Below, in pieces: positions 30,912-61,845 of a stretch of DNA of 64,000 bases; the first letter of the stretch is position 1; every line of letters starts with the position of its first letter. Under the pieces are notes generated by a model, which was given only the letters and a program-made list of their open reading frames with translations, was not told where the DNA came from and did not search any database. The position numbers and the translations under genes are program-made. Source of the DNA: Squalus acanthias (taxonomy: Eukaryota); the NCBI GenBank assembly GCA_030390025.1, contig JASTWF010000034.1, positions 5,890,001 to 5,954,000 of the forward strand. Direction: 5' to 3'.

Positions 30912-31340
30912 CTTTCCAATCATTGTTGAAGCTTCCTGTTTTATCCCTTTTCCGAAAATGGGGATCTCGGTCCCGCCGGATCTGCTCTGTGAACCCAGCG
31001 ACCTTTCTCCAGTCCCAGTCAGTGAGGCGATGATTCGACTTCTCTCTCCCCACCTTCCTGAAATATTGCTCACTCCCAGAGACTGTCAATAGAAAAATGA
31101 TTAATATTAATCCCAGAATCTGTAACTGGAATACAGTGGGACTGTTTTTGTGACTGATTATATTTAATTTGACTAAACTCACTGCCAGTGTCAGCTGTCA
31201 CTCCAGCTCCTCCCACACCGACATCCCACTGATGGGCCGTAACCGGGGCGGAAACCTGACTCCAGGTGACATCACAAAGGAACCGGGAGCCAATCACACA
31301 ACAGCCGGGAATAATGACACAAAGCGGCCATAAACCCTCC
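30912..31340 (-). other. Promoter/exon cassette copy A (171-bp exon 30912-31082; ATG changed to AGG)
   Basis: Acceptor TTTTTCTATTGACAG, donor AAG|GTGAGG; upstream donor CA|GTGAGT; GC box, TGACATCA and CCAAT. Confidence 0.6.
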
Positions 31341-31342
31341 AA

Positions 31343-31661
31343 AGTCAACATGGATTTACAAAAGTTAAATCGTGCTTGACTAATCTATTGGAATTTTTGG
31401 AGGATGTAACTGGTAAAATAGATAAGGGAGAACCAGTGGATGTGGTGTATTTGGACTTTCAAAAGGCTTTCGATAAGGTCCCGCATAAGAGATTAGCGTG
31501 TAAAGTTAAGGCACATGGGATTGGGGGGCATGGTATTGACTTGGATAGAGAACTGGTTGGCAGACAGAAAGCAAAGAGTTGGAATAAACGTGTCTTTTTC
31601 CGAGTGGCAGGCAGTGACTAGTGGGGTACCGCAGGGATTGGTCCTTGGACCCCAGCTATTC

Positions 31662-31710
<49 letters not shown>

Positions 31711-32665
31711 GATCTAGACGAGGGACCTAGATGTAATATCTCCAAGTTTGCAGACGACACAAAGCTGGGTGGGCGTGTGTGCTGTGAGGAGGATGCCGAG
31801 AAACTCCAGGATGATTTGGACAGGTTGGGCGATTGGGGAGAAGCATGGCAGATGCAATTTAACGTGGATAAATGCGAGGTTATCCACTTTGGTGTCAAAA
31901 ACAGAAAGGCAGATTATTATCTGAATGGCAATAGATTGGGAGAAGGGGAAGTGCAACGAGAACTGGGTGTCCTTGTGCACCAGTCGCTGCAGGTAAGCAT
32001 GCAGGCGGTTAAGAAGGCAAATGGATGTTGGCCTTCGGAGCGAGAGGGTTTGAGTGCAGGAACAAGGATGTCTTGCTGCAGTTGTACAGGGCCTTGGTGA
32101 AACCACATCTTGAGTATTGTGAGCAGTTTTGATCGCCTGATCTGAGGAAGGAGGTTCTTGCCATGGAAGGAGTTCAGCGAAGATTCACCACGCGGATACC
32201 TGGGATGGCAGGAATGATGTATGATGAGAGATTGGATCGATTGGGATTATACTCGCTGGAGTTTAGAAGAATGAGAGGGGATCTCATTGAAACTTATAAA
32301 TTTCTGACAGGACTGGACAGACTAGATGCAGGAAGGATGTTCCCGATGGTCGGGGAGTCCAGAACCAGGGGTCACAGTCTAAGGATAAGGGGTAAGACAT
32401 TTAGGACAGAAATGAGGAGGAATTTCTTCAACCAGAGAGTGGTGAACCTGTGGAATTCTCTACCACAGAAGGCAGTAGAGGCCAATTCATTAAATATATT
32501 CAAGAAGGAGTTGGATATATTTCTTAAGCCGAAAGGGATCAAGGGATATGGGGAGCAAGCAGGGACACGGTTCTAAATTTGGATGATCAGCCATGATCGC
32601 ATTGAATGGCGGAGCAGGATCGAGGGGCCGAATGGCCTACTCCTGCTCCTATCTTCTATGTTTCT
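31343..32665 (+). mobile_element. CR1 RT and 3' end
   Basis: YLDFQKAFDKVPH, GVPQG, KFADDTK, RRMRGDLIE and tail. Confidence 0.95.
31665..31706. repeat. (AT)21 microsatellite expanded inside the CR1 FTIYIND codons
   Basis: Read directly. Confidence 0.95.
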
Positions 32666-32669
32666 CCCA

Positions 32670-32960
32670 CTCTACAATACAGAGCTCCCTCTACATTACT
32701 CCGAAAGTGTACCCCCACTTTATACCCAGTGTCAGCATGGAATGCTCCCAGGGCAGATACAATGCAGAGCTCCCTCTACATTACCCTGACAGTTTACCCC
32801 CACTTTATACCCCGTGTCAGCATCGTGCACTCCCAGGGCAGGTACATTACAGAGATCCCTCTACATTACCCTGAGAGTGTACCCCAACTTAATACCCAGT
32901 GTCAGCATCGTGCACACCCTGGGCAGGTATAATACAGAGCTCCCTCAACATTACCCTGAC
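32670..32960 (+). repeat. 85-bp tandem repeat
   Basis: CAGGTACAATACAGAGCTCCCTCTACATTAC...CCCACTTTATACCCAGTGTCAGCATC. Confidence 0.9.
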
Positions 32961-33184
32961 ATTACCACTGTTGCTCCCTCCCGCTCCATACCATTCCTGT
33001 TCCTCACTCTGCTCCAGCTCGGGTTCCCCAGCCACAGTTCCTCTGCCGTTTGTTCCAGGTAGTCCAGGGTCCACTTTGCTGGACAGGTCACAGCGGGGTC
33101 TAAGAGTAGAGGAAGATTCAGAAGTCAAACACCATTTAAAGTGAAAACGGTCAGAGCGGCCGTAATCACCCTCAGGACCTTAAC

Positions 33185-34752: not shown

Positions 34753-35214
34753 GAGTGGCCCGTCCACATACCGGTCACCTGGGCGATGAACTCCATTGAC
34801 CAATCGGCTTCACTGTCGGCCTGCGATGTGTCTGCCGTCGGCTCGGTGGCCAGAAACTCCTCGACCCAGGTCCCCGACATCGCCAGGTCTGCCACAACGG
34901 GGGCTTGGGGTGTGAAAACAGGGCCCGAATCTGGGCAGGAAACACCCAGGCTCCATCTCCGGCCTGTGCTGATTTGACCCTCTGCTCCCAGGGGTGATCT
35001 TACCTCACTGCTGAGCCTGTCAAAGCCTCAGTTCTCAACCTCCTGCATCTCCGCCAGCAGGTCGTCCATCTTGAACGTGTGGGGTGCGCGGGGCAGCAGC
35101 GGGCCATTCTGATCAGTCACGAACTCCGAGACTAACTGCAAGAGAGAGAGGCGGCAATTAGACCCACACAATGATGGGTGCCCACCCCTGAAATGTCCCC
35201 TCCCGGAGTGGTTA

Positions 35215-35470: not shown

Positions 35471-35714
35471 TGGAGCCTGGATTACAGGCTGACACAATAA
35501 CCATCTTTGTCCTCTCAGGCAGATCCCAGTGGCTTGGAGACCTGGAATATGGCATGGACTGGTTGGGCCGAATGGCCTGTTATCGTCAAAGAGACATTTT
35601 ATAATTCTGAGGGAGAGGGATTGAGAGAGAGAGGCACAGGAGGCGTAAATATTATAGTTATAGTCATAGATTTGCATTACTGATTGATATTATTTATTAT
35701 CTATTTCTAATAGC

Positions 35715-36745: not shown

Positions 36746-36764
36746 CCCCATATAATCCCCTGTT

Positions 36765-37630
36765 ACAGAGTAAAGCTCTCATCAAATACCTCCAGGGCAG
36801 GTACAGTGGGTTAGATACAAAGTTCAGCTCCCTCTACACTGTCCCATCAAACACTCCAAGGGCAGGGACAGCACGGGTGAGATACAGAGTAAAGCTCCCT
36901 CTACACTGCCCCACCAAACACTCCCAGGGCAGGTACACCACGGGATAGATACAAAGTAAAGGTCCCTCTAAACTGTCCCATCAAACATTCCCAGGGCAGG
37001 TACAGCACGGAATAGATACAGAGTAAAGCTCCCTCTACATTGTCCCATCAAACACTCCCAGGGCAAGTACAGCACGGGTTAGATACAGAGTAAAGCTCCC
37101 TCTACACTGCCCACCAAACATTCCCAGGGCAGGTACAGTGGGTTAGATACAGAGTAAAGCTCCCTCTACACTGCCCACCAAACATTCCCAGGGAAGGTAC
37201 AGTGGGTTAGATACAGAGTAAAGCTCCCTCTACACTGTCCCATCAAACATTCCCAGGGCAGGTACAGCACGGGTTAGATACAGAGTAAAACACCCTCTAC
37301 ACTGTCCCATCAAACATTCCCAGGGCAGGAACAGCACGGGTTAGATACAGAGTAAAGCTCCCTCTACACTGCCCCACCAAACATTCCAAGGGCAGGTACA
37401 GTGGGTTAGATGCAGAGTAAAGCTCCCTCTGCACTGTCCCATCAAACATTCCCAGGGAAGGTACAGTGAGTTAGATACAGAGTAAAGTTCCCTCTACACT
37501 GTCCCATCAAACACTCCCAGGGCAGGTACAGCACAGGTTAGATAGAGAGTAATGCTCCCTCTACACTGTCCCACCAAACATTCCAAGGGCAGGTACAGCA
37601 CGGATTAGATACAGAGTAAAGTTCCCTCCA
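36765..37630 (+). repeat. 67-bp satellite array
   Basis: Same unit as 16770. Confidence 0.95.
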
Positions 37631-37946
37631 ATTTGGTTCATCAACACAACCAACTCTGATTCATCATGTGTTCAATGCAGCGTACAGCTCCCTTGACACT
37701 ACCCAATGAAGCACAACCAGCTCGGGTACAGCATGGGGTGAATACAGAATAAAGATCCCTCTACATGTAAGTGTCAAACACTCCCGGGTGAGGTACGGGC
37801 AAGGTTTATCTCCGAGTTAAGCTCCGCTCAACTTGCCACATCAAAGGCCGAGCCTGACGGCAGATGTTGAACGGCTCCCAGTATCTGGTTAGACTCTCAT
37901 CTCAGCAAAATGCTGGACTGATGGGATTCTCAGTAAAGTTCCTCAC

Positions 37947-38460
37947 CTTTCCAATCATTGTTGAAGCTTCCCGTTTTATCCCGTCGCCGACACTGGGGGT
38001 CTCGATCCCACCAGATCTGCTCTGTGAAACCAGAGACATTTCTCCAGTCCCAGTCAGTGAGGCGATGATTCGACTTCTCTCTCTCCACCTTCCTGAGATA
38101 TTGCTCACTCCCAGAGACTGTCAATAGAAACATGATTCATATTAATCCCAGATCCAGTCCCTGGAATACAGTGGGGCTGTTTTTGTGACTGGGATTGTAT
38201 CTAATTTCATTATCTTTGCAATTAATGTGTATTTCAATTACTTACATTAATATTAAATTGTTCCATTCAGCCCTTTGCCCTGTTTATTGGGACTAAACTC
38301 ACTGCCAGTGTCAGCTGTCACTCCAGCTCCTCCCACACTGACGGGCCGTAACCAGGGGCGGGGCCCTGTTTCCAAGTGACATCACACAGGAGCAGGGAGC
38401 CAATCAGTCAAAGAGCAGCCTGGAAAACTATTAAAGCGGCCAAGCCCCTCCCAATCCCCC
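37947..38460 (-). other. Promoter/exon cassette copy B (exon 37947-38117, ATG 38039, splice sites intact)
   Basis: MSLVSQSRSGGIETPSVGDGIKREASTMIGK|GTGAGG; upstream donor at 38302; GGGGCGGGG, TGACATCA and CCAAT. Confidence 0.65.
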
Positions 38461-38471
38461 CGGGGCAGGTA

Positions 38472-41400
38472 CATAACGAACATACGAATTAGGAGCAGGA
38501 GTCGGCCATTCGGCCCCTCAAGCCTGTTCCGCCATTCAATAAGATCATGGCTGATCTGGTTACTCCACAGTCCCGTCCAACCCCCGATAACCTTTCACCC
38601 CCTTGCTTATCAAGAATCTATCTACGTCCGCCTTAAAAATATTCAGACTCTGCTTCCACCGCCCTCTGAGGAAGAGAGTTCCAAAGACTCACGACCCTCT
38701 GAGAAAAAACATTCTCCTCATCTCTGTCTAAAATGGGCGCTCCATTATTTTTAAACAGTGACACCTAGTTCTAGATTCTCCCACAAGAGGAAACATCCTC
38801 TCCGCATCCACCCTGTCAAGACCACTCAGGATCTTATAGGTTTCAATCAAGTCACCTCTTACTCTTCTAAACTCCAGTGGATAAAAGCCTAGCCTGCCCA
38901 ACCTTTCCTCATCAGACAACCCGCCCATTCCAGGTATTAGTCTAGTAAACCTTCTCTGAACTGCTTTCAAAGCATTTACATCCTTCCTTAAATAAGGAGA
39001 CTAATACTGTACTCAGTACTCCAGATGTGGTCTCACCAATGCCCTGTATAACTGAAGCATAAACTCCCTACTTTTGTATTCAATTCCCCTCGCAATAAAC
39101 GTTAACATTCGATTAGCTTTCCTAATTACTTGCTTTACCTGCAGATTAACCTTTTGCGATTCTTGCACTCGGACACCCAGAACCCTCTGCATTTCAAAGC
39201 ACTGCAATCTCTCACCATTTAGATAATATGCTTATTTTTTATTTTTCCTGCCAAAATGCACAATTGCACATTTTCACACATTATACTCTATTTGCCAGAT
39301 CTTTGCCCACTCACTTATCCTATTTATATACCTTTGTAGCCTCCATATGTCCTCTTCACAATTTACTTTCCTACCTATCTTTTTGTCATCAGCAAATTTA
39401 GCAACCATCCCTTCGGTCCCTTCATCCAAGTCATTTATATAAATTGTAAAAAGTTGAGGCCCCAGCATTATCCCTGTGGCACACTACACGTTACATCTTG
39501 CCAAACAGAAAATGACCCATTTATGCCTACTCTCTGTTTCCTGTTAGCTAGCCAATCTTCTATCCATGCCAATATGTTAACCCCGACACCATGAGCTTCT
39601 ATTTTCCGAAATAACCTTTGATGTGGCACCTTATCAAATGCCTTCTGGAAATCTAAGTACAGTACATCCACCGGTTCCCCTTTATCCACAGCACATGTTA
39701 CTTCCTCAAAGAACTCCCTTAAATTGGTTAAACATGATTTCCCTTTCACAAAGCCATGCTGACTCTGCCTGATTACCTTGAACTTTTACAAGTGCCCTGC
39801 TATAACGTCTTTAATAATAGTTTCTAGCATCTTCCCTAAGACAGGTGTTAAGCTAACTGGCCTGTAGTTTCCTGCTTTCTGTCTCCCTCCCTTTTTGAAT
39901 AAAGGAGTTACAATCGCTATTTTCTAATCTAATGGAACCTTCCCTGAATCTAGGGAATTTTGGAAAATTAAAACCAACGCATCAACTATCTCACTAGCTA
40001 CTTCTTTTAAGACCCTAGGATGAAGTCCATCAGGACCCGGGGACTTGTCAGCCCGCATCTCCAACAATTTCCTCAGTACTACTTCCCTGGTGATTGTAAT
40101 TTTCTTGACTTCCTCCCTCCCTTCCATTTCCTGATTTACAGCTGTTTCTGGGATGTTACTTGTATCCTCTATAGTGAAGACCGATGAAAAATACCTGTTC
40201 AATTCAACTGCCATCTCCTTATTTTCCATTATTAATTCCCCAGACTCACTTTTTATAGCACCAACGCTCCCTTTGTTAACTCTTTTCTTTTTAGAATATC
40301 TATAGAAACTCTTACTATCTGTTTTTATATTTCTAGCTAGCTTTCTCTCGTACTCTCATTTTTCTCTCCTTATTAATCTTTTAGTAATTCTTTGCTGTTT
40401 GTTTATATTCTGTCCAATCTTCTGACCTGCCACCCATCTTTTCACAATTATATGCTTTTTCTTTAAGTTTGATACTATCTTTAACTTTTTTAGTTAACCA
40501 CGGATGGTGGGTCCTCCCCTTGGAATTTTTCTTTCTCGTTGGAATGGATCTATTCTGTGTATTCTGAAATATCCCATTAAATGTCTGCCACTGCAGCTCT
40601 ATTGACCTATCGCTTACTCTAGTTTGCCAGTTCACTTTAGCTAGCTCTGCTATCATGCCCTCATAATTGCCCTTATTTAAGTTAAAAAAACTAGTCTTGG
40701 ACCAAATCTTCTCTCCCTCAAACTGAATGTAAAATTCAATCATATTATGATCGCTGCGACCTAGGGGCACCTTCACTATGTGGTCATTAATTAATCTTAT
40801 CTTGTTTCACAATACCAGGTCTACTATAGCCTGCTCTCTGGTTGGCTCCAGAACGTGCTGTTCTAAGAAACTGTCCCAAAAACATTCTATGAACTCCTCA
40901 TCTAGGCTACCTTTGCCCATCTGATTTTTCATTCTATATGTAGATTAAAATCCCCATGATTATTGCCGTACCTTTCTGACAAGCTCCCATTATTTCTTCC
41001 TTGATACTCCATCCTAACGTGTGGTTACTGTTAGGGGGCCTGTACATCACTTCCACAAGTGACTTCTTGCCTTCATCATTTCTCATCTCTACCCAAACCG
41101 CTTCTACATCCTGGTTTCCTGAACTTAAGTCATCCCTCTATTGCGCTAATACCATTATTAATTTACAGAGCCACCCCTCCACTTTTTCCTAAATATCATG
41201 TACCCTTCAATATTCAGGTCCCAATGTTTGTCATCCTGCAGCCATGTCTCTGTAATGGCTATCAGATTGTACTTATTTAATTCTATTTGCGCCATCAGTT
41301 CATCTGTTTTGTTTCGAATGCTACGTGCATTCAGATACAGAGCCTTTAGTTTTGTCCTTTTATTATTTTTGTAACCTTTAGCCTTATCTGTTGATTTACT

Positions 41401-41720
41401 CTTAGATTTGTACTCTCTATCCCTTCCCGTCACGGTCTGTTTATCATTTCCCATATTAATACCTTTCTCTCTTGTCTTGTTTCTACTCTTTGAATTACCA
41501 CATCTTCCCAGATTTGATCCCTGGCCCCCAATATTTAGTTGAAAGCCCTCTCTACCGCCCTAGTTATAGGACTCGCCAGAACACTGGTCCCAGCACGGTT
41601 CAGGTGAAGACCAACCCAACGGTACAGATCGCACATTCCCCAGTACTGGTGCTAGTGCCCCAGGAAGCGAAACCAATTTCTCCCATACCAGTCTTTGAGC
41701 TACGCATTCATCTCTCTAAT
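38472..41720 (-). mobile_element. CR1 LINE with almost complete ORF2 and the end of ORF1, decayed
   Basis: ORF1 esterase-like GLHLNRAG; ORF2 YLNARSI, ITETWL, SDHNMIEF, SPGPDG, DFQKAFD, KFADD and tail. Confidence 0.95.
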
Positions 41721-43890
41721 TTGATGGAACAGGGTAGAGAGAGCTTTACTCTGTATCTAAACCGTGCTGTATCTGCCCTGGGAGTGTTTGATGGGTATTT
41801 GTAGAGGGAGCTTTACTCTGTATCTAACCCGTGCTGTACCTGCCCTGGGAGTGTTTGATGGGTCTTTGTCGAGGGAGCTTTACTCTGTATCTAACCCGTG
41901 CTGTACCTGCCCAAGGAGTGTTTGATGGGTCTTTGTAGAGGGAGCTTTACTCTGTATCTAACCCGGGCTGTATCTTCCTGGGAATATTTGAAGGGACAGT
42001 GTGGAGGAAGCTTTACTTTGCATCAATTCCTGTGCTGTACCAGCCCTGGGAGTGTTCGATAGGTCTTTGTAGAGGGAGTTTTACTCTGTACCTAACCCGT
42101 GCACTACCTGCCCTGCGAGTATTTAACGCTACAGTGATGAGGGAGCTTTACTCTTTCAAAACAGTGCTGTACCTGCCCTGGGAGCGTTTGATGGGACGGT
42201 GTAGATGCAGCTTTACTCTGTATCTAACCCCATGCACTACTTGCCCTGAGAGTGTTTGAGGGGACAGTGTAGAGGGAGCTTTATTCGGTATCTAACGCGG
42301 GCTGTACCTGCCTGAGAAAGTTTGATGCGACAGTGTAGAGGAAGCTTTACTCTGTATCTAACCCGTGCTGTATCTGCCCTGGGAGTGTTTGATGGGCCAG
42401 TGTAGAGGGAGCTTTACTCTGTATCTAACCCCGTGCTGTACCTGCCATGGGGCTGTTTGATGGGACAGTGTAGAGGGAGCTTTACTCTGTATCTAACCCC
42501 GTGCACGACCTGCCCTGCGAGTGCTTGCTGGGGCAGTGTAGAGGGAGCTTTACTCTGCATTTAACCTGTGCTGTACCTGCCCTGGGAGTGTATGATGGGA
42601 CTCTGTAGAGTGATCTTTACTCTGCATCTTACCTGTGCTGCACCTGTCCTGGGAGTGTTTGATGGGACAGTGTATAGGTAGCTTTACTCTGCATCTTACC
42701 TGTGCTGTACCTAAACTGGGAGTGTTTGATGGGAAAGTGTAGCGGGAACTTTACTCTGTAACTAACCTGTGCTGTCCCTGCCCTGGGAGTGTTTGATGCA
42801 ACAGTGTAGAGGGAGCTTCATTCCATATCTAATCCATGCTGCACCTGCCCAGGGACTGTTTGTTGGGACAGTGTCGATGGAGCTCTACTCTGTATCTAAC
42901 CATTGTTCTATCTGCCCTTGGTGTGTTTGATAGCACAATGTATAGTGAGCTATACTCTGTATCTAACCCGTGCAGTACCTGGCTTGGGAGTGTTTGTTGG
43001 AACTGGATAGAGGGGTCTTTACTCTGTATCTAACCCGTGCTGTTCCAGACCTGGGAGTGTTTGATGGGGCAGTGTAGAAGCAGCTTTACTCTGTATCCAA
43101 CCCGTGCAGTACCTGGCCTGGGAGTGTTCGATGTGACAGTATACAGGGAGCTATAGTCAGTATCTAACACGGGCTGTACACGCCTGGGAATATGTGATGG
43201 GACAGTGTAGAGGAAGCTTTACTCTGCATCCAACCCAGTGCTGTACCTGCCCTGCGAGTGTTTGATGGGACAGTGTAGCGGGAGCTTTACTCTGTACCGA
43301 ACCGATGCACTAACTGCCCTGCGAGTGTTTGATGGGGCAGTGTAGTGGGAGCTTTACTCTGTATCTAACCCGTGCTGTACCTGCCGTGGGAGTGTTTGAT
43401 GGGACAAAGTAGAGGGATCTTTAATCTGTATCTAAACCGTACTGTTCCTGCCCTGGGAGTGTTTGATGGGACAGTGTAGAGAGAGCTTTACTCTGTATCT
43501 AAACCTTGCTGTACCTGCCCTGGGAGTGTTTGATGGGATTGTGTAGAGAGAGCTTTACTCTGTATCTAAACCTTGCTGTACCTGCCCTGGGAGTGTGTGT
43601 TGGGACAGTGTAAAGAGAGCTTTACTCTGTATCTAAACCTTGCTGTACCTGCCCTGGGAGTGTTTGATGGGATTGTGTAGAGGGAGCTTTACTCTGTATC
43701 TAAACCTTGCTGCACCTGCCCTGGGAGTGTTTGATGGGATTGGTAGAGGGCTCTTTACTCTGTATCTAAACCTTGCTGTACGTGCACTGGGAGTGCTTGA
43801 CAGCCAGTGTATTGTGCGCTTTACTCTATATCTAACAAATGCTGTACCTGCACTGGGACTGTTTGATGGGACAGTGTAGTGGGAGCCTTA
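41720..43890 (-). repeat. 67-bp satellite array in inverted orientation
   Basis: Reverse complement of the 16770 unit. Confidence 0.95.
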
Positions 43891-45268: not shown

Positions 45269-45964
45269 CAGTGTAGGATCCGTTGACTTGTTAGCCCTCC
45301 CCAAATGCATTACCTCACACTTCTCCGGATTGAATTCCATTTGCCACAATCTTCCTGCATGCAGCATGAGTTATACACAGAGTAAAGCTCCCTTTACACT
45401 GCCCAATCAAACAGTCTAATGGCAGGTACAGTACGGGTTAGAGAGAGAGATACAGAGTAAAGCTCCCTTTACAATGCCCAATCAAACAGTCCAAGGGCAG
45501 GTACAACACGGGTTAGATAGAGAGATACAGAGCAAAGCTCCCTTTACAATGCCCAATCAAACAGTCCAAGAGCAGGTACAGCACGGGTTAGATACAGAGA
45601 TACAGACTAAAGCTTCCTCTACACTGTCCACTCAAACACTCGCAGCGCAGGTACAGCGCGGGTGACTTGCAAAGTCCCCTCTAATACAGCATGTGCAGCG
45701 TACAGCTCCCTTGACACTACCCAATGAAGCACAACCAGCTCGGGTACAGCATGGGATGAACACAGAATAAAGATCTCACTACATGCAAGTGTCAAACACT
45801 CCCGGGTGAGGTACGGGCAAGGTTTATCTCCGAGTTAAGCTCCGCTCAACTTGCCACATCAAAGGCCGAGCCTGATGGCAGATGTTGAACAGCTCCCAGT
45901 ATCTGGTTAGACTCTCACCTCAGCAAAATCCTGGACTGATGGGATTCTCAGTAAAGTTCCTCAC

Positions 45965-46450
45965 CTTTCCAATCATTGTTGAAGCTTGCCGTTTTATCCC
46001 GTCTCCGACAGTGGGGGTCTCGATCCCACCAGATCTGCTCTGTGAACACAGCGACATATCTCCAGTCCCAGTCAGTGTGGCGATGATTCGACTTCTCTCT
46101 CTCCACCTTCCTGAGATATTGCTCACTCCCAGAGACTGTCAATAGAAAAATTATTCATGTTAATTCCGGAATACAGGGGGAGCATTTTTGTGTCCATAAA
46201 TATATTCAATTTGATTATTTTTGCAATTAATCAGTGTGTTTGAATTACTTACTTTAATATTGAATAGTTCTTTTCTGTCCATTGCCCTGTTTATTGGGAC
46301 TAAACTCACCCCCAGTGTCAGCTGTCACTCCAGCTCCTCCCACACTGACATTCCACTGATGGGCCGTAACCAGGGGCGGGGCCCTGTCTCCAGGTGACAT
46401 CACACAGCAGCCAGGAACGATGTCACAAAGCGGCCGGAGCCACTCCCACT
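45965..46450 (-). other. Promoter/exon cassette copy C (exon 45965-46135 intact; CCAAT segment deleted)
   Basis: MSLCSQSRSGGIETPTVGDGIKRQASTMIGK with AG/GT intact. Confidence 0.6.
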
Positions 46451-46759
46451 CGAGGTGGCACAGGGTCACATTGACCAGGGTCTGCTCCTGGTGTGCAGTC
46501 TCACTGGGCATGAACACAGGGTGTACAATCAGCCCCGTCTCCGGGAATGAACCGGGATCCTGCCCTACATCTCTCCCGAGTTTTATTTCCATCGGTGTAA
46601 AATGGATGGCTGATTCACAATTACCCGTTTTGTACTATAGCACCTACTAAACGTCAAACTCTACCCCAGTATTTCTTTCCTTCTCTACGTATCTGCTCCA
46701 TCGCTGTCTCTGCCTCTCTCCACAGTGAGGGATCCGTCTGGGGCTGGGATCATACTGTG

Positions 46760-47042: not shown

Positions 47043-47420
47043 TTAATCCCAGAATACAGGGGGGGCATTTTTGTGACCAAATTTATATTCAATGTGATTA
47101 TTTTTGCAATTAATGAGTGTTTGAATTACTAACTTTAATATTAAATTGTTCTTTTCTGTCCATTGCCCTGTTTATTGGGACGAAACTCACCCCCAGTGTC
47201 AGCTGTCACTCCAGCTCCTCCCACACTGACATCCCACTGATGGGCCATAACCAGGGGCGGGGCACTGTCTCCAGGTGACATCACACAGCAGCAAGGAGCG
47301 ATGTCACAAAGCGGCCGGAGCCCCTCCCACTCGAGGTGTCACAGGGTCACATTGACCAGGCTCTGCTCCTGGTGTGCAGTCTCACTGGGCATGAACACAT
47401 GGTGTACAATCAGCCCCGTC
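47043..47420 (-). other. Partial cassette copy C' (promoter, first exon and intron only)
   Basis: Direct duplicate of about 46160-46540, sharing the CCAAT deletion. Confidence 0.7.
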
Positions 47421-47919: not shown

Positions 47920-48583
47920 ATAGCAAAATACTGCGGATGCTGGAAATCTGAAATAACAACAGAAAACGCTGGAAAAACTCAGCAGGCCAGGCAGCATCCG
48001 TGGAGAGAGAAAGAGAGTTAACGTTTCAGGTCGATGACCTTTCATCAGAACTGTGAAGAGCCGGAAATCAAATAGATTTAAGGCCAGAGTAAAGCTGGGA
48101 AAAGGGGGAGGGGATAAAAGAACAAAGGGGAAGATGAAGAGACATTAAGAGACATTGAGAGATATGCAAGGCTAGAGGTGGTGTAAATGTGACAGATTAA
48201 GGCTGAAAGAAGTGTGAAATCCACTGGCAGAATGAAGGACAGCTGCCAGCTTCTAGGAGGAAAAAAAAAGGTGGGGGAGGGGCAAATAAAAGGGTGGAAA
48301 AAATAAAATATAAATGTGATTGCAGCTGAGGTAATGATCTAAAATTGTTGAACTCGATATTGAGTCCAGAGGGCTGTAGCGTGCCTAAACGAAAGATGAG
48401 GTGCTGTTCCTCGAGCTTACGCTGCGCTTCCGTGGAACAGTGTAATAGGCCGAGGACGGTGAGGTCAGAGTGGGAGTGAAGCGGTGAATTAAAGTGACAG
48501 GCCACCGGGAGCTCGGGGTCCCCCTTACGGACTGAACGGAGGTGTTCCGCAAAGCGGTCACCCAATCTGCGTTTGGTCTCCCC
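47920..48583 (-). mobile_element. Penelope-like element 3' part (GIY-YIG endonuclease C-terminus and terminal repeat)
   Basis: GETKRRLGDRFAEH...PVACHFN...RKLEEQHLIFRLGTLQPSGLNIEF. Confidence 0.9.
48016..48052 (-). ncRNA. Minimal type I hammerhead ribozyme motif
   Basis: AGTT-CTGATGA-A-AGGTC(ATC)GACCT-GAA-ACGT-T-AACT: stem I, catalytic core, stem II and a palindromic rudimentary stem III. Confidence 0.75.
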
Positions 48584-48599
48584 CAAAAAAGTGCTTCTG

Positions 48600-49150
48600 C
48601 TGCAGTTGCAGAGGGCCGCGCATGCGCCCTGACCCCGCCCTGTCCAAGATGGCGGCGCGGGGAAAAGTCCCGCCTTCCTTCACCAATATGGCGGCCGGTT
48701 GCCGGGGTAACCCGGGCCTGTTGCCGGGGAGAAAGCCTTCAGCAAGTTGGTGGCCAGTCGCCCCGCTTACCCGGGCGGCCGGGCCTGGCGCTGCGGCGCA
48801 AACACGAGGCCCCGCGGGGTCTTATTCGGGGCCTGAGGCCCAGCCCGGGTGTTTGTGAAGCTTCCCAGACCCCGCGTGCCACCTGTTCCTCCCCGGCCCC
48901 CAGAATCTCCTGCCGCCTCTTGAATCGTTTGTTCGGCCATTAGTACAACAGGAAATGCTCTGACAAAGTTATCGACCTGAAACGTTGTCAATTTTTCTCT
49001 CCCGCGATGTTCCTGCTGCCGCCATTGCCTCGTCTGCACCACTCGTACTGCGCATGCTCGGAGCACTCCCCGTCCCCGCGCCTGCGCACTGGACTCCTGT
49101 AGTCATTGATTGGGCACTTTCTGCCGCGCGGGGGATCGTGGGTAAAAACA
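48600..49150. promoter_or_regulatory. CpG-island-like promoter with a possible minus-strand first exon (48940-48771)
   Basis: GCGCATGCGC (NRF1) 48618, CAAGATGGCGGC (YY1) 48645, AATATGGCGGC 48685, GTTGCCGGGGTAAC (RFX) 48698, GC boxes, CCAAT; donor CGG|GTAAGC at 48770. Confidence 0.65.
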
Positions 49151-49174
49151 CCGCCATTGAATGCCACAAACAAG

Positions 49175-50220
49175 AGAGCAGCTTTTCATACTGGCTAAAG
49201 GTGGAAAGTGGTGTTCCACAGGGATCGGTGTTGGGACCGCTGCTGTTCACAATTTACATAAACAATTTCGACTCGGGAATCTGAAGTACAATTTCAAAAT
49301 TTGTCATTGATACCAAATTGGGAGGTATATTTACTATTGATGAAGACTGTGACATAATGCAAGAAGACATTAATAAACTTGCAGAATGGAAGTGTAATTG
49401 GCGAATGAATTTCAATATAGATAAGTGTGAGGTGGCGCCTTTTGGTAGGAAGAATAAGGAGGCCAGATACTGTTTGAAAATAAGAGTATAAATGGGGAAG
49501 AGGAGCAATGCGATTTCGGGGTACAGATACACAGAACACTAAAAGTAGCAATGGAGGTTAATAGGGCCATACAAAACAAACAAGGCACTGGGGTTAATTT
49601 CCAGAGGGATAGAATTGCAAAGCAGGGAGGTTATGTTAAACTTGTACTGACCCTGGGTTAGATCATACTTGGAGTACTGTGAAAAGCTCTGGTCTCCATA
49701 TTATTACGAGGGGCCCAATGGCCTACTCCTGCTCGTATTTCTTATGTTCTTAATATAGAGGCACTGGAGAAGGAGATTTGTAAGGATGATCCTAGAACTG
49801 AGAGGATATACTTATCAGGAAAGGCTGAACAGGCAGGGTCTTTTTTCTCTTGAAGAAAGAGAATGCTGATGGAAGACCGGATAGAGGTCTTTAAGATTAT
49901 GAGAAGGTTATAAAGGGTGGTCGTGGAGAAAATGTTTCCACTTGTGGGAGTCCAAAACTGGAGATCATCAATATAAGGTAGTCACTAATAAATCCAATGG
50001 AGAATTCAGGAGAAATTCTTCACCCAAAGAGAGGTGAGAATGTGGAACTCGCTACCACAGGGAGTAGTGGAGGCGGATAGTACAGATGCATTTAAGGAGA
50101 AGTTAGATAAACACATGAGGGAGAAAGGAATATAAGGTTATGCTAATAGAAATAGATGAAGAGGGGTGGGAGGAGGCTTGCGTGGGGAATAAACACCGGC
50201 ACAAACCAATTGGGCAGAAT
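49175..50220 (+). mobile_element. CR1 RT 3' fragment
   Basis: SGVPQGSVLGPLLFTIYIN, decayed downstream. Confidence 0.9.
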
Positions 50221-52245
50221 AGTTCAGAGGCAGAGTAAATCTACCCCAACACTGCCCCATCAAACTCTCCCAGGACAGGCACAACACGACTTAGACACAG
50301 TGTAAATCTCCCCCAGCACTGTCCCATCAAACACTCCCAGGGCAGATTCAGCAAAGGTTAGATACAGAGTAAAGGTCGCTCCACACTGGCCCAGCAAACT
50401 CTCACAGGGCAGGTACAGCACGGGTTCGATACAGAGTAAAGGTCCCTCCACACTGTCCCATCAAACACTCCCAGGACAGGCACAACACGACTTAGACACA
50501 GTGTAAATCTCCCTCAGCACTGTCCCATCAAACATTCCCAGGACAGGTACAGCATGGGTTAGATACAGAGTAAAGCTCATCTCTGCACGGTACCATCAAA
50601 CACTCCCATGGCTAGTTCATGTTTGATACAGGGTCGAGCTCCCCCTAACTGTCCCAACAAACCCGTCCAGGACAGGCAGACCACGAGTTGGACACAGAAT
50701 AAAGCTGCATCAACACTGTCCCATCAAACACTCCCAGGGCAGGTACAGCACTGGTTAGATACAGAGTAAAGCTCCCTCTGCACTGTCCCATCAAACTCTC
50801 CCAGGGCAGGTACAGCATGGGTAAGATACAGAGTAAAGCTCCCTCTACACTATCACATCAAACACTCGTCGGGCAAGTACTGCAAGGATTAGAAACAGAA
50901 TAAAGCTCCCTCTACCATGTCCCATCAAACACACCCAGGGCAGTTTCAGCACAGGTTAGATACAAAGTAATTCTCACTCTACACTGTCCCATCAAACACT
51001 CCCAGGGTATGTTCAGAACATGTTTGACAGAGAGTAAAGTTCCCTCTCAACTGTCCCGCCAAACACTCCCAGGGCAGGTGCAGCACGGGTTAGATACAGA
51101 GTAAAGCTCCCTCTAAACTGTCTCATCAAATTCTCCCAGGGCAGAAACAGCATGTGTTAGATACAGAGTAAAGCTCCCTCTTCAATGTCCCATCAAACAT
51201 TTAAAGGGCATGTACAGCAGGGGTTAGAAACAGAGTAAAGCCCCCTCGACACTGTCCCATCAAACTCCCCCATGACAGGTACAGCACGGTTAAGATACAG
51301 AGTAAAGCTCCCTTTACACTGTCCCAGCAAACACTCCTAGGGCAGGTTCAGACCACGTTTGATACAGAGTAAAGCTCCCTCTACACTGTCCCATCAAACT
51401 CCCCCATGGCAGGTACAGCACGGTTAAGATACAGAGTAAAGCTCCCTTTCCACTATCCCATCAAAACTGTCCAGGACAGGCAGAACACGAGTTAGACACA
51501 GAGTAAAGCTGCATCAACACTGTCCAATTTATCACTACCAGGGCAGGTACAGCATGGGTTAGAAACAGAGTAAAGCTTCCTCTACACTGTCCCATCAAAC
51601 ACCCGCAGGGCATGTACAGCACCGGTTAGATACAGAGTAAAGCTCCCTCTACACTGTCCCATCAAACACTGCCTGGGCAGGTTCAGAACAGGTTAGATAG
51701 AGTAAATCTCCCTCTGAACTGTCCCAGCAAACCACTCCCAGGGCAGGTTCAGACCACGTTTGATAGAGTAAAGCTCTCTCTACACTGTCCCATTAAACCC
51801 ATCCAGGACATGCAGAACACGAGTAAGACAGATTAAAACTCCCTCGACACTATCCCATCAAACTCTCCCAGAGCAGGTACAGCATGTGTTAGATACAGAC
51901 TAAAGCTGCCTCTACAGTGTCCCATCAAACCCTTCCAAGACAGGCACAACACGAGTTAGAGACAAAGTAAAGTTGCATCAAAACTGGCCCATCAAACACT
52001 CCCAAAGCAGGTGCAGAATGGATTAGATACAGATTAAAGATCCGTTTACACTGTCCCATCAAACTCTCCCAGGGCAGGTAAAGCACAGGGTAGATACAGA
52101 GTGAACCTCCCTCTACAATGTAACATCAAACACTCTCAGGGCAGGTACAGCACGGGTTAGATACAGAGAAACACTCTCTACACTGTCCCATCAAAAAATC
52201 CCAGGGCAGGTTCAGACAATGTTTGGTCCAGAGTAAAGCTCTGAA
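50220..52245 (+). repeat. 67-bp satellite array
   Basis: Same unit and variant order as 16770-18655. Confidence 0.95.
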
Positions 52246-53920
52246 ATTAATATTTTGCATCTGTGTTCACTATGGAGAAGGACGATGGAGGCATAGAAAT
52301 CAGGCAGGGGGATTGTGATATACTTGAACAAATTAGTATTGAGAGGGAGGAGGTACTCGCGGTTTTAGCGGGCTTAAAAGTGGATAAATCCCCACACCCT
52401 GACGGAATGTATCCCAGGCTGCTGTGTGAGGCAAGGGAGGAGACTGCAGGGGCTCGGACACAAATTTTCAGAACCTCTCTGACCACAGGGGAGGTGCCAG
52501 AGGACTGGAGAACAGCTAACGTGGTACCATTGTTCAAGAAGGGTAGTAGGGATAAACCAGGGAATTACAGGCCAGTGAGCCTAACATCAGTGATAGGGAA
52601 ATTATTGGAAAAAATTCTGAGGGACAGAATTAGTCTCCACTTGGAGAGGCAAGGATTAATCAGGGATAGTCAGCATGGCTTTGTCAGTGGGAGATCATAT
52701 CTAACCAATGTGATTGAATTTTTTGAGGGGGTGACTAGGTGTGTGGATGACGATAGTGCAGTTGATGTCGTCTACATGGTCTTCAGTAAGGCTTTTGATA
52801 AAGTCCCACATGGGAGACTGGTCACGAAGGTAAGAGGCCATGGGATCCAGGGCAATTTGGCACATTGGATTCAAAATTGGCTTAGTGGCAGGAGGCAGAT
52901 GGTGATGGTCGAAGGTTGTTTTTGTGACTGGAAGCCTGTGTCCAGTGGTGTAACGCAGGGAAAGGTCTGTGTCCTTTGCTGTTTGTAGTGTACATTAATG
53001 ATTTAGATATGAATGTAATTTCGCAGATGACACGAAAATTGGTGGAGTGGTAAATAGCGAGGAGGGAAGCCTCAGGCTACAGGACGATATAGACGGGATG
53101 GTTAGATGGGCAGAACAGTGGCAAATGGAATTTAACCCTGAAAAGTGTGAGTGATGCATTTTGGGAGGACAAACAAGGCAAGGGAATACACAATGAATGG
53201 TAGGACCCTAGGAAGGACAGAGGATCAGCGGGACCTTGGCGTGCATGTACATAGATCCCTGAAGGCAGCAGGGCAGGTAGATAAGGTGGTTAAAAAGGCA
53301 TATTGGATATTAGCCGAGGCATACAATATAAGAGCAGGGAGGTTATGATGGAGCTGTACAAAACGCTAGTTTGGCCACAGTTGGAATACTGTGTGCAGTT
53401 CTGGTCACCACACTATAGCAGGGATGTGATTGCATTGGAGAGGGTGCAGAGGAGATTCACCAGGTTGTTACCTGGGCTGGAGCGTTTCAGCTGTGAAGAG
53501 AGACTGGACAGGCTGGGGTTGTTTTCCTTAGAGCAGAGAAGGCTGAGGGGGGACCTGATTGAGGTGTACAAAAGTATGAGGGGCATAGCTAGGGTGGATA
53601 AAAAAGAAATTCTTCCCTTCGTAGAGGGGTCAATAACCAGGGGGCATAGTTTCAAGGTAAGGGGCAGGAGGTTTAGAGGGGATTTGAGGCAAATCTTTTT
53701 CACCCAGAGGGTGGTTGGAATCTGGAGCTCACTCCCTTAAAGGTGGTAGAGGCAGCAACGCTCACAACATTGAAGCAGCATTTAGATGAGCACTTGAAAC
53801 GCCATAGCATACAAGGCTAGGGACCAAGTGCTGGAAAATGGGTTTGGAATAGACAGGGCTTGATGGCCGGTGCAGACACGATGGGCCGAAGGGCCTCTTT
53901 CTGTGCTGTATAACTCTATA
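52245..53920 (+). mobile_element. CR1 RT and 3' end (duplicate of 18655-20150)
   Basis: Near-identical translation, including the same internal deletion. Confidence 0.95.
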
Positions 53921-55035: not shown

Positions 55036-55318
55036 GCATGTGTTCAATGCAGCGTACAGCTGCCTTGACACTGCCCAATGAAGCACAACCAGCTCAGGTA
55101 CAGCACGGGGTCAATACAGAATAAAGATCCCTATACATGTAAATGTCAAACACTCCCGGGTGAGGTACGGGCAAGGTTTATCTCCGAGTTAAGCTCCGCT
55201 CAACTTGCCACATCAAAGGCCGAGCCTGATGGCAGATGTTGAACAGCTCCCCGTATCTGGTTAGACTCTCACCTCAGCAAATTCCTGGACTGATGGGATT
55301 CTCAGTAAAGTTCCTCAC

Positions 55319-55840
55319 CTTTCCAATCATTGTTGAAGCTTCCCGTTTTATCCCGTCTCCGACACGGGGGGGTCTCGGTCCCACCAGATCTGCTCTGTGA
55401 AACCAGAGACATTTCTCCAGTCCCAGTCAGTGTGGCGATGATTCGACTTCTCTCTCTCCACCTTCCTGAGATATTGCTCACTCCCAGAGACTGTCAATAG
55501 AAAAATGAGACATATTAATCCCAGAATCTCTACCTGTAATACAGCGGGACTGTTTTTGTGTCTGTGATTGTATCTATTATGAAGATATTTGCAATTAATG
55601 AGTGTTTGAATTACTGTAGATAATATTAAATAGTTCTTTTCGGCCCTTTGCCCTGTTTATTGGGACTGAACACTCCCAGTGTCAGCTGTCACTCCAGCTC
55701 CTCCCACAATGACACCCCACTGATGGGCCGTAACCAGGGGCGGGGCCCTGTCTCCAGGTGACATCACAACGGAACCGGGAGCCAATCACACAGCAGCTTG
55801 GAACAATGTCACAAAGTAGCCGTAGCCCCTCCCACTCGCG
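55319..55840 (-). other. Promoter/exon cassette copy D (exon 55319-55490, 172 bp, +1 insertion)
   Basis: Aligns with copies A-C; extra base in the C run. Confidence 0.6.
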
Positions 55841-55849
55841 GGGCAGGTA

Positions 55850-56730
55850 CATAAGAACATAAGAATTAAGAGCAGGAGTAGGCTATTCAGCCCTTCGAGC
55901 CTGCTCTGCCACTCAATAAGATCATGGCTGATCTTTGACCTCAACTCCACTTTCTCGCCTGATCCCCATATCCCTTGATTCCCCTAGAGTCTAAAATTCT
56001 ATCTGTGTCAGCCTTGAATATACTCAAAGACTCAGTCTTCACAGTCCTTTCGTGCAGAGAATTCCAACCCTCTGAGTGAAGAAATTCCTTCTCATCTCAG
56101 TCTTAAATGGCCGACCCCTTATCCTGAGTCTATGCCCCCTAGTTCTAGACTCTCCAGCCAGGGGAAACAATCTCTCAGCGTTTACCCTGTCAATCCCCCT
56201 CAGAATCTTATATGTTTTAATGAGATCACCTTTCATTCTTCTAAACTCCAGAGAGGAGAGGCCCAATCTACTCAATCTCTCCTCATAGGACAATCCTCTC
56301 AACCCAGGGATCAATCTAGGGGACCCTTTGTTGCACCGCTTCTAAGGCATGTATGTCCTTTCTCAGATAAGGAGACTAAAACTGTGCACAACACTCCAGG
56401 TGTGGTTTCACCTAAGCCCTATATAATTGTAGCAAGACTTCCTTACTCTTGTACTCCAACCCCCTTGCAATAAAGGCCAACATGCCATTTGTCTTTCTAA
56501 TTGCTTGCTGTACCTGCATGCTAACTTTCTATGTTTCCTTTAAGAGGACACCTATATCTCTCTGAACAGCAACATTTAACAGTTTCTCACCATTTAAAAA
56601 TATTGTTTTTCTATTCTTCCGACCAAAGTGAACAGCCTCACATTTCCCCACATTATACTCCATCTGCCACCTTATTGCCCACTCACTTAACAGGTCTATA
56701 TCTCTTCGCAGGCTCTTTGTGTCCTCTTCA
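55850..56730 (-). mobile_element. CR1 3' fragment
   Basis: IPGLRGLSYEERL...RRNFFTQRV and tail. Confidence 0.9.
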
Positions 56731-57344
56731 CACTGGACCCTGAATTAGTTCAAGATGTCCACTCTGACATTCCACCAACATAGTAAGGAGTTTAATCAGA
56801 AAGGAGGACAAGATTTGGTCAACACCAGTGCCATATCAGCTTGGTGCTGGGATGCAGAGATGATGCCTTCCCAGTTTATGTACTTCACTCTGGTAATGTC
56901 CATACAGAATGTTACCAGTTTGGTAAAGACCCAATCCTTGGATGGCCCTGGAGTGGTCAACTGCTATCTAGCCTATGCTCTGAATTGTCTATAGCTGGAT
57001 GTGCACAAATACAAGTGCTTTATTTACTGGATTTTCTTGAGTTGTAAGGAAGTACAACACGTCCAATAAGTAGGATCTGCTGGACTGATCTATGCAACAT
57101 CTTTGACAATCTAGTCACTTGGATCTGGAGCATACAAAATTTGTTTACATAATGCACTTAGTTCTATATCATGGAGCTGTGTGAGCTACATATGAACAAT
57201 TATAATGCAAGGCACCAATCCAGCTTTGCTAATTTAAAAACTACCTTCGTGTGAGAAAATTCACATAAAAGCACTTAACCCAAGGTAAGTTACAGATGCA
57301 TTTAAAATGTTTCCACCGATATGTGGGAGCAGTGCAGAGAATTT

Positions 57345-59177: not shown

Positions 59178-60235
59178 AGGTACAATACAGAGCTCTCTCT
59201 GCATTACTCCGACAGTGTACCCCCACTTTATACCCAGTGTCAGCATCGAGTGCTCCCAGGGCAGGTACAATACAGAGCTCTCTCTGCATTACTCCGACAG
59301 TGTACCCCCACTTTATACCCAGTGTCAGCATCGAGTGCTCCCAGGGCAGGTACAATACAGAGCTCCCTCTACATTACTCCGACAGTGTACCCCCACTTTA
59401 TACCCAGTGTCAGCATCGAGTGCTCCCAGGGCAGGTACAATACAGAGCTCCCTCTACATTACTCCGACAGTGTACCCCCACTTTATACCCAGTGTCAGCA
59501 TCGAGTGCTCCCAGGGCAGGTACAATACAGAGCTCCATGAACATTACTCCGACAGTGTACCCCCACTTTATACCCAGTGTCAGGATCGAGTGCTCCCAGG
59601 GCAGGTACAATACAGAGCTCCCTCTACATTACCCTGACAGTGTACCCCCACTTTATACCCAGGGTCAGCATCGAGCACTCCCAGGGCAGGTACAATACAG
59701 AGCTCCCTCTACATTACCCTGAGAGTGTACCCCCACTTTATACCCAGTGTCAGCATCGAGTGCTCCCAGGGCAGGTACAATACAGAGCTCCCTCTACATT
59801 ACTCCGACAGTGTACCCCCACTTTATACCCAGTGTCAGCATCGAGTGCTCCCAGGGCAGGTACAATACAGAGCTCCATGAACATTACTCCGACAGTGTAC
59901 CCCCACTTTATACCCAGTGTCAGGATCGAGTGCTCCCAGGGCAGGTACAATACAGAGCTCCCTCTACATTACCCTGACAGTGTACCCCCACTTTATACCC
60001 AGGGTCAGCATCGAGCACTCCCAGGGCAGGTACAATACAGAGCTCCCTCTACATTACCCTGAGAGTGTATCCCCACTTTATACCCAGTATAAGCAGCAAG
60101 CACTCCCGGGGCAGGTACAATAAGGAGCACCCTGTACAATACCCTAACAGTGTCCCCCCACTTTATACCCAGTGTCAGCATGGAGCGCTCCCGGGGTAGG
60201 TACAATAAAGAGCTCCATCTATATTACACTGACAT
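59178..60235 (+). repeat. 85-bp tandem repeat, about 12 units
   Basis: Same unit as 32670; a 340-bp four-unit block is duplicated. Confidence 0.95.
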
Positions 60236-60271
60236 TAACATTATTACTACCTCCCTCTCCCCGCTCCGTAC

Positions 60272-60380
60272 CAATTCTGTTCCTGACTGTGCTCCAGCTC
60301 GTGTTCCCCCAGCTAAAGTTTCTCTTCTGTATGTTGCAGGTATTCCTGGGCCCACTTCGCTGGGCAGGACACAGCAGGCT
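60272..60380 (-). pseudogene. PEX5: PEX5 copy 2: single exon of 109 bp with an in-frame TAG
   Basis: CAG|EPAVSCPAKWAQEYLQHTEEKL*LGEHELEHSQEQNW|GTACGG. Confidence 0.88.
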
Positions 60381-60464
60381 CTGCGGGGGGACAGGAAGTG
60401 TCAGAGGTCAAACACCATTTAAAGTTATACACCCACAGGCCGCTTTAATCACCCTCAGGACCTT

Positions 60465-61110
60465 TCCCACAATGCCCAGTGTCAGTGACGCTGTATCCAC
60501 AATTCCCAGGGGCAATGACCCTGTACCCACAATGCCCAGGGGCAGTGACCATTTACCGACAATATCCAGGGTCATTGAGCTTACCCACAATGCCCAGTGT
60601 CAGTCCCTTGTTCCCACAATGCCCAGGGTCAGTGACGCTGCATCCACAATGCCCAAGGTCAGTGACCCTGTACCCACAATGCCCAGGGTCAGTGACGCTG
60701 CATCCACAATGCCCAAGGGCAGTGACCCTGTACCCACAATGCCCAGGGGCAGTGATAATTTACCGAAAATGTCCAGGGTCATTGAGCTTACACAAACTGC
60801 CCAGTGTCAGTCCCCTGTACCCACAATGCCCAGAGTCAGTGACATTCTACTCACTATTCCTGAGGGTCAGTTACCTTACCCACAATACCCAAGGTCATGA
60901 CCCGTTCCCACAAGGCCCAGGGTCAGTGACCCAGTACCCACAAGATTCAGGATCAGTGATCTGTACCCACAATGCCCAGGATCAGTCACCCAGTACCCAC
61001 AAGGCCCACGTTCAGTGATCTGTACCCACAATGCCCAGGATCAGTCACCCAGTACCCACAAGGCCCAGGGTCAGTGATCTGTATCCACAATGCCCGAGTT
61101 CAGTGACCCA
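60465..61110. repeat. Degenerate 30-bp minisatellite
   Basis: Same unit as 33185. Confidence 0.9.
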
Positions 61111-61406
61111 CAAACAGAACCAACTCTGATACATCATGTGTTCAATGCAGCATACAGTTCCCCTGTCACTGCCCAATGAAGCACAACCAGCTCAGGTACA
61201 GCATGGGGTGAATAAAGATCCCATTACCTGTAAGTGTCAAACACTCCCAGGTGAGGTACGGGCAATGTTTATCTCTGAGTTAAGCTCCGCTCAACTTGCC
61301 GCTTGAGGTGAGCCTGACAACAGATGTTGAACAGCTCCCAGTATCTGGTTAGATTCGCACCTCGGAAAATTCCTGGACTGGTGGGATTCTGAGTAAAGTT
61401 CCTCCC

Positions 61407-61845
61407 CTTTCCAATCATTGTTGAAGCTTCCCGTTTTTTCCCATCTCTGACACTGGGGGTCTCGATCCCACCAGATCTGCTCTGTGAAACCAGAGACATT
61501 TCTCCAGTCCCAGTCAGTGAGGCGATGATTCGACTTCTCTCTCTCCACCTTCCTGAGATATTGCTCACTCCCAGAGACTGTCAATAGAAAAATGATTCAT
61601 ATTAATCCCAGAATCTGTAACTGGAATACAGTGGGACTGTTTTTGTGACTGATTATATTTAATTTGATTAAACTCACTGCCAGTGTCAGCTGTCACTCCA
61701 GCTCCTCCCACACTGACATCCTACTGATGGGCTGTAACCAGGGGCGGGGCCCTGACTCCAGGTGACATCACAAAGGAACCGGGAGCCAATCACATGGCAG
61801 CCTGGAACAATGTCACAAAGTGGCCATCGCCCCTCCCACTACCGG
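61407..61845 (-). other. Promoter/exon cassette copy E (exon 61407-61577; donor GT changed to GG)
   Basis: MSLVSQSRSGGIETPSVRDGKKREASTMIGK then GGGAGG; all promoter motifs present. Confidence 0.6.

Follow-up and report, generated by a model that had tools for sequence, protein, structure and literature searches.

A satellite-bounded duplicon of an exon cassette and PEX5 exon remnants in Squalus acanthias as the probable source of chimeric pseudogene transcripts

Introduction

Why does a promoter-like sequence with two short exons recur six times on one strand of a satellite-rich stretch of shark DNA, and what kind of RNA does it give? The unit in question, here called the cassette, lies in a 64-kb stretch of the Squalus acanthias contig JASTWF010000034.1 (positions 5,890,001 to 5,954,000; hereafter the window), and all genomic statements below cover this window. 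An earlier note, made from the letters alone, had read the cassette as a portable 5' gene end that travels within segmental duplicons and can drive transcription of whatever lies downstream. We conclude that the cassette and neighbouring fragments of PEX5, the gene for the peroxisomal targeting signal 1 receptor, probably (at a rough probability of 0.62) form a satellite-bounded duplicon that yields a transcribed family of chimeric PEX5-fragment pseudogenes or long non-coding RNAs (lncRNAs).

Results

The 171-nt exon is spliced in public RNA

Copy B of the cassette was used as the reference and has the following parts.

37800-38473, minus strand: cassette copy B, with a promoter-like part, a short first exon, a 185-nt intron, a 171-nt exon and a conserved downstream intron start
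38366-38404, minus strand: promoter-like part of copy B, with ATTGG at about 38404, TGATGTCA at 38384 and a GC box at 38366
38303, minus strand: end of the short first exon of copy B
37947-38117, minus strand: 171-nt exon of copy B, with an ATG at 38039-38037; a spliced exon in public RNA

Seventeen public runs from seven studies contain part of 37900-38440, and four of them were examined: X8, which is RNA on record; X1 and X2, which we guess to be RNA; and X13, a control run. All of these runs derive from related organisms, and expression level can be judged only poorly from contig depth. Contig depth in X1 and X2 was 775-1931 over 37962-38115, compared with 38-127 in the adjacent downstream bins and 0-18 across 38138-38225. 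In X13, depth was flat (18-29), and one contig spanned the whole stretch with 25 other letters. The single X8 contig examined covers exactly 37947-38118 and carries 68 and 233 foreign letters on its sides. The depth steps in X1 and X2 and the edges of the X8 contig fall exactly at the splice sites that had been predicted, and the 171-nt exon is a true spliced exon. It occurs in many variants, with 67 exon-covering contigs in X1 and 91 in X2.

The exon is joined to a fragment of PEX5

The downstream loose end of the X8 contig maps to 35135 and 63716 in the window (0 matches expected from 100 shuffles). Both positions begin an exon with a good acceptor and donor, and the best match of the exon at 63716 is white shark PEX5, at 82% identity. 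TBLASTN with three shark PEX5 proteins (P0004 from Carcharodon, P0006 from Scyliorhinus and P0009 from Heptranchias) detected six PEX5 exon remnants, which cover residues ~61-186 as three consecutive segments with LVxEF and WxxxF/Y motifs and are 68-83% identical over ungapped matches.

63584-63716, minus strand: PEX5 LVxEF-motif exon; open, with good splice sites; not followed by the next PEX5 exon
62594-62701, minus strand: third PEX5 exon; stop, frameshift and lost donor
60272-60380, minus strand: third PEX5 exon; in-frame stop
35004-35135, minus strand: PEX5 LVxEF-motif exon (~residues 62-105), the type spliced to the 171-nt exon; 1-nt deletion, stop after 35 codons
34772-34903, minus strand: PEX5 exon with two WxxxF motifs (~residues 106-149); open
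32992-33099, minus strand: third PEX5 exon (~residues 150-186); frameshifted

The exon at 34903-34772 also resembles the PEX5 peptide of PDB 2W84 (E=0.076). TBLASTN detected in the window neither the start of PEX5 (its first 60 residues) nor any part beyond residue 186, the TPR domain included. The window thus holds a partial gene copy without 5' exons, limited to residues ~61-186; it has no intact PEX5 exon chain, all three copies of the third exon being broken. According to the accessible part of PMC8086558, PEX5 motifs of the captured part bind the N-terminal domain of PEX14.

The X8 end (read by eye) and both LVxEF copies of the window share a V where all three shark PEX5 proteins have L, and because of this shared residue the X8 RNA belongs with the PEX5 fragment family. 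True shark PEX5 has an N-terminus different from the cassette-derived one in all three proteins, and the 171-nt exon shows no relation to PEX5 (E=2.4). The X8 contig, found in one of the four runs examined, accordingly links a foreign upstream exon to a PEX5 fragment by splicing. The proposal that the cassette could serve whatever lies downstream was borne out in so far as a foreign partner exists, but this partner is a set of PEX5 exon remnants belonging to the same repeated unit. Among the joints listed for the four runs, the only downstream partners were the PEX5 exon and the 171-nt exon itself.

Six cassette copies have decayed differently

BLAST of 37800-38500 detected all six copies that had been described, all on the minus strand and 77-91% identical to copy B (E 0 to 3e-34). 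The acceptor and second exon are kept in five copies, with an exon of 171 nt in A, B, C and E and of 172 nt in D.

30815-31343, minus strand: cassette copy A; exon 31082-30912; ATG changed to AGG; 100-nt intron
45810-46460, minus strand: cassette copy C; exon 46135-45965; CCAAT segment deleted
47052-47340, minus strand: cassette copy C'; front part only, without the 171-nt exon
55172-55845, minus strand: cassette copy D; exon 55490-55319 with a +1 insertion; first donor damaged
61263-61855, minus strand: cassette copy E; exon 61577-61407; donor GG; 100-nt intron; abuts the 85-bp satellite array directly

The lesions reported earlier were all found, namely AGG for ATG in A, the +1 insertion in D, the GG donor in E and, in C and C', the absence of a 22-nt segment holding the CCAAT box. 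The promoter motifs are likewise present, but their strand had been stated wrongly: CCAAT and TGACATCA are plus-strand readings, and the minus strand reads ATTGG and TGATGTCA. As further changes, the first donor of D has a 2-nt deletion, B lacks an 11-nt stretch present in the other five copies, and A and E have in common an 85-nt intron deletion (introns of 100 nt, compared with 174-185 nt elsewhere). Copy C' is a local duplicate of C, 93% identical over 384 nt.

A segmental duplication is defined by a length of at least 1 kb and an identity of at least 90%. Matches among the cassette copies extend over 0.2-0.7 kb at 77-92% identity, and a block near the cassettes (18665-20147/52292-53770) is 94% identical over 1.5 kb. 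This block lies within a younger duplicated block, 16442-20151 and 49893-53774, consisting of a long interspersed nuclear element (LINE), a 67-bp array and a second LINE, whose unique parts are 94-97% identical.

Cassettes and PEX5 remnants alternate between satellites

Along the minus strand the order is a PEX5 exon (63.7 kb), a third exon, cassette E, a third exon, cassette D, a CpG island, C', C, B, three PEX5 exons (35.1-33.0 kb) and cassette A. Because cassettes and PEX5 remnants alternate, they are parts of one repeated unit, and forward splicing through them can give every joint seen. The 5' end of the cassette lies in satellite-core sequence in B, D and E; in B, C, D and E, the 3' end falls within a 67-bp unit that has decayed. 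Similarity between copies forms a mosaic: comparison of A with E shows a single difference among 59 intron sites, against 14 among 93 sites in the second half of the exon.

The window as a whole is repeat-rich vertebrate DNA with 67-, 85-, 30- and 40-bp satellites and LINE fragments (RVT_1 matches in 3 of the 8 window frames scanned). Sharks are the source of the best protein matches to its exons, and a tRNA scan of the window returned none. Short shark chromosomes have a high tandem-repeat content, as stated in the accessible part of PMC10620051. Two 67-bp arrays matter for the arguments below.

36777-37830, no strand assigned: 67-bp satellite array 3' of copy B; inverted relative to 41720-43890, 80% over 1070 nt
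41720-43890, no strand assigned: 67-bp satellite array between copies C and B

Of ten segments of the 67-bp family, the array at 41720-43890 alone has the opposite orientation, possibly owing to a local inversion.

LINE 3' ends at 38471-39360 and 55849-56732 abut cassettes B and D at the same point of the satellite core. These LINEs are 74% identical, compared with 91% for cassettes B and D themselves; this mismatch may mean that the LINEs inserted independently at one motif or that the cassettes were converted later. Directly downstream of copy A lies a 4.6-kb array of a 40-bp unit (25806-30453) with very low CpG.

Upstream joints point to an internal exon

Upstream partners of the 171-nt exon were of at least four kinds, including the exon itself and an exon in the CpG island. 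The exon end was joined to the exon start at a depth of 284 in X1 and 47 in X2 (two contigs each); no such joint was present in X8 or X13. An upstream loose end of X1 matches 48680-48709 with one mismatch, inside the island.

48550-49150, minus strand: CpG island (observed/expected CpG 0.87); holds a relative of the alternative first exon spliced to the 171-nt exon in X1

In the window copy of this exon, the donor expected after 48678 reads GA, not GT. The fronts of cassettes B, D and E have lower observed/expected ratios than the island, at 0.27-0.45 compared with 0.87. Motifs at 49040-49110 within the island are ones that we take to be NRF1- and ZNF143-type sites, and they suggest a captured housekeeping-type promoter. 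Directly behind the island exon, 48197-48679 on the minus strand is a frame without a Pfam match; we presume that it resembles the end of a Penelope-type GIY-YIG endonuclease. About 19 tandem copies of a CpG-rich 27-bp unit at 10374-10882 contain AAGATGGCGGC, presumably a YY1-type motif, and two such motifs also occur in the island at 48.6-48.7 kb.

The X8 sequence directly preceding the exon agrees over 13 letters with the end of the third PEX5 exon (3 matches, 0.15 expected), and the 17 letters further up fail to match it. Three upstream loose ends, including one of X2 and one of X1, had no match in the window at up to three mismatches.

Since the upstream partners seen are other exons, the 171-nt exon acts largely as an internal exon. 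The capacity of the cassette promoter to drive transcription was therefore not shown by these data, and the predicted 38303-to-38117 junction was not among the four joints listed for the four runs, an absence from contigs that is no proof. Depth in X2 was 84-108 over the short first exon compared with 12 in mid-intron. Contigs of X1 and X2 end at scattered points around 38331-38406, near the GC and CCAAT boxes, where X13 runs on. Contigs cannot show transcription starts, and these ends are a weak hint of one, partly blurred by the 11 nt missing from B. A reading of the promoter motifs as major histocompatibility complex (MHC) S-X-Y or RFX elements is an assumption of ours that obtained no confirmation.

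The exon is unlikely to encode protein

The exon is open in two reading frames, 0 and 2, a property equalled by 58 of 5000 dinucleotide shuffles. The pooled ratio of non-synonymous to synonymous differences (pN/pS) in the four gap-free copies was 1.00 for frame 0, 0.94 when counted from the ATG and 0.63 for frame 2, figures based on few changes and on pairs that are not independent. At a pN/pS of ~1.0, the open ATG frame gave no sign of purifying selection.

The reading frame is not kept in expressed copies either. One-nucleotide deletions behind the ATG occur at 37994 in 12% (X1) and 8% (X2) of depth and at 38005 in 34% (X2); the GA run has 2-nt changes, and 1-nt and 2-nt indels overall occur in 3-34% of contig depth. 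Read from the ATG, the B unit would reach a stop after 66 codons.

Searches for a protein relative scored 0 of 28 candidates for the frame-0 peptide (proteins of 101-2000 aa) and 0 of 595 for the frame-2 alignment (proteins of 234-2000 aa). No named protein or family was found for either frame, which is weak evidence given the size-limited protein sets. An exhaustive frame-2 search returned three matches. P0002, an unnamed predicted protein, is a true diverged relative of the exon, with at least 18 differences in 138 nucleotides; P0001 and P0003 are repetitive proteins whose scores were dismissed as repeat artefacts. Readings of the P0002 tail as a different downstream exon or as intron read-through were rejected, their scores being reached by 38 of 100, 40 of 100 and 26 of 200 shuffles, as were cysteine-protease-like atlas leads (0.78-0.83), which lay within the range of shuffled sequences. 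Exact-pattern scans of metagenome and viral contigs gave no hits, Rfam gave no match, and Pfam gave no coding domain in the cassette. Shark NLR, TRIM or zinc-finger 5' exons, which we had presumed as possible parents of the cassette, received no confirmation. Overall, protein coding by the 171-nt exon is unlikely.

Other features of the window

A frameshifted rhodopsin-family receptor gene lies at 9385-10313 on the plus strand (7tm_1, E=2e-16), apparently across two frames. Harbinger-type remnants occupy 3920-7230, with a Myb/SANT-like frame on the plus strand and a DDE_Tnp_4 frame on the minus strand; a 54-bp tandem array (4678-6342) lies between the two.

Discussion

The reading that we prefer, at the probability given above, is a satellite-bounded tandem duplicon made of a cassette module and a 5'- and 3'-truncated PEX5 module of three internal exons. 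Unequal exchange and conversion between related 67/85-bp satellite arrays would have multiplied and shuffled these modules. Transcription may start at the cassette's own front end, at the CpG island or at both, and the transcript would run through the array, splicing from module to module. The product would be a family of chimeric pseudogene/lncRNA transcripts, abundant and with many variants, that encodes no selected protein, and the cassette itself may derive from a gene end or from exapted sequence that predates this expansion. Of the earlier idea of a portable 5' gene end in duplicons, the part that holds is that the cassette is duplication-borne and joined to foreign downstream sequence; for its use as a promoter there is a weak hint, and the 171-nt exon acts largely as an internal one.

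Several observations weigh against this reading. The runs come from related organisms, and expression of the six window copies is not demonstrated by them. The PEX5 junction is one contig in one of the four examined runs (of 17), among the joints listed, and there the 171-nt exon joins the PEX5 exon in the ATG frame. The exon has 22 variable columns of 171 against 41 of 150 in the introns (Fisher p=0.001; columns not independent), and its first 78 nt, before the ATG, vary least (4/78 vs 18/93, p=0.006), a pattern that fits nucleotide-level constraint or conversion. Frame 2 has the pooled pN/pS of 0.63, on few changes. Between the two copies of the LVxEF exon, 7 of 35 codons differ synonymously and 4 non-synonymously, perhaps a trace of past coding selection on the PEX5 piece.

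A circular RNA would also explain part of the data. The main product would then arise by back-splicing, helped by inverted satellites, of either the 171-nt exon alone or a loop of several exons whose last is the third PEX5 exon; the exon end-to-start joints in X1 (284) and X2 (47) use canonical sites, and in X8 the 13 letters preceding the exon agree with the end of the third PEX5 exon. Back-splicing is plausible because copies B and C lie between 67-bp arrays in inverted orientation (80% identity over 1070 nt for B, 78% over 1941 nt for C). No inverted flanks occur within 6 kb of A or E, and D has only one of 46 nt. However, tandem copies on the same strand (C before B, and the third PEX5 exon before A, D and E) yield the same joints, and five such copies lie in 31 kb of the window. 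The differing 17 letters further upstream in X8 also speak against a loop. According to the accessible part of PMC8822704, back-splice calls are known to arise falsely from tandem duplication and exon repetition. We regard a circle as an unlikely main product. It is likewise unlikely that the exon is an ordinary second exon (5' untranslated or first coding) of an expanded shark gene family, with PEX5-joined copies as a minor by-product. The high summed depth, the 67 and 91 variant contigs, the four or more upstream partner kinds, conservation above intron level and the diverged relative P0002 would all suit such a family, but neither frame found a named protein (weak evidence, from the 101-2000 and 234-2000 aa sets), the downstream partners seen were the PEX5 exon and the exon itself only, and control X13 gave six contigs among those examined.

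The cassette as a shark 'core duplicon', an old and constrained promoter-exon module that seeds duplications mediated by satellites, captures exons of housekeeping genes and makes a functional abundant RNA (partly a 171-nt circle formed with the aid of the inverted arrays) or a short PEX5 decoy peptide that binds PEX14, is in our judgement unlikely. As for the decoy taken by itself, a copy outside the window would encode 31 cassette residues followed by the PEX14-binding motifs of PEX5, lacking the cargo-binding TPR domain, and would act as a decoy in docking. A phase-0 exon end does meet a phase-0 PEX5 exon, the 63716 and 34903 exons are open, synonymous differences outnumber non-synonymous ones (7 vs 4) in the LVxEF exons, and the motifs bind the PEX14 N-terminal domain (PMC8086558, accessible part). 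Yet the B unit stops after 66 codons, the window has no intact chain, pN/pS behind the ATG is neutral, expressed variants carry frameshifts, X8 has F at the first motif position, and none of the eight PEX5-match proteins examined (of 120 listed) carries the cassette N-terminus; a decoy is very unlikely. That the cassette is part of a transposable element can hardly be maintained. Its repetition, its promoter-like front and its position among LINE fragments with RVT_1 matches would fit one, but, contrary to the caution raised earlier that it might prove to be a known transposon, it has no terminal repeats, poly(A) tail, coding domain or Rfam match. Moreover, its six copies lie on one strand, its ends are set by satellite rather than by target duplications, its intron is kept, and X13's 33 million records gave only six contigs.

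As matters stand, the array is probably a family of transcribed pseudogenes of modest importance, and shark genomes offer a slowly evolving setting for such fusion transcripts. Most known examples of promoter capture and of fusion transcripts in duplicated DNA are from primates. In the literature on shark PEX5 duplication we found no description of this family, subscription papers lying mostly outside the search. Two of the features that define fusion transcripts of this kind, a partial gene and a spliced foreign exon, are found here.

The closest counterparts are 5'-truncated human duplicates that gained foreign 5' ends, namely GTF2IP1/GTF2IP4 (promoter and first exon from GATSL2), ROCK1P1 and HYDIN2, as described in the accessible part of PMC6169893. 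As in these, promoterless internal exons are spliced to exons of unrelated duplicated sequence, and, as in the human fusions of the GTF2IP1/4 type, for which the same part of the source indicates that the reading frame is mostly not kept, the frame is lost. The shark case differs in not being primate and in having modules of 0.1-0.7 kb, interleaved in tandem among satellites; being this short and 77-92% identical, the modules are older and smaller than those of the GTF2IP type. CHRFAM7A, in which one of four FAM7A cassette copies is fused in frame to a partial gene duplicate (PMC8998457, accessible part), likewise joins a multi-copy exon cassette to a partial duplicate of a conserved gene. To the extent covered there, CHRFAM7A keeps the 3' end and makes a dominant-negative protein, whereas the shark array lacks the PEX5 3' end and its chain is broken; and the FAM7A parents, ULK4 and GOLGA8B, are known, whereas the shark cassette matched no named protein in the sets searched. 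The exon end-to-start joint at canonical sites resembles single-exon circular RNAs and 'tandem RNAs', as far as these are treated in the accessible part of PMC8822704. Unlike the circles, the shark window has genomic tandem copies, and for this reason the joint does not show a circle; abundant joints of this kind in shark RNA may be tandem-array splicing. Being shared by several organisms, with each module decaying differently, the shark case would indicate that new transcripts arise by this route in satellite-rich shark DNA as well.

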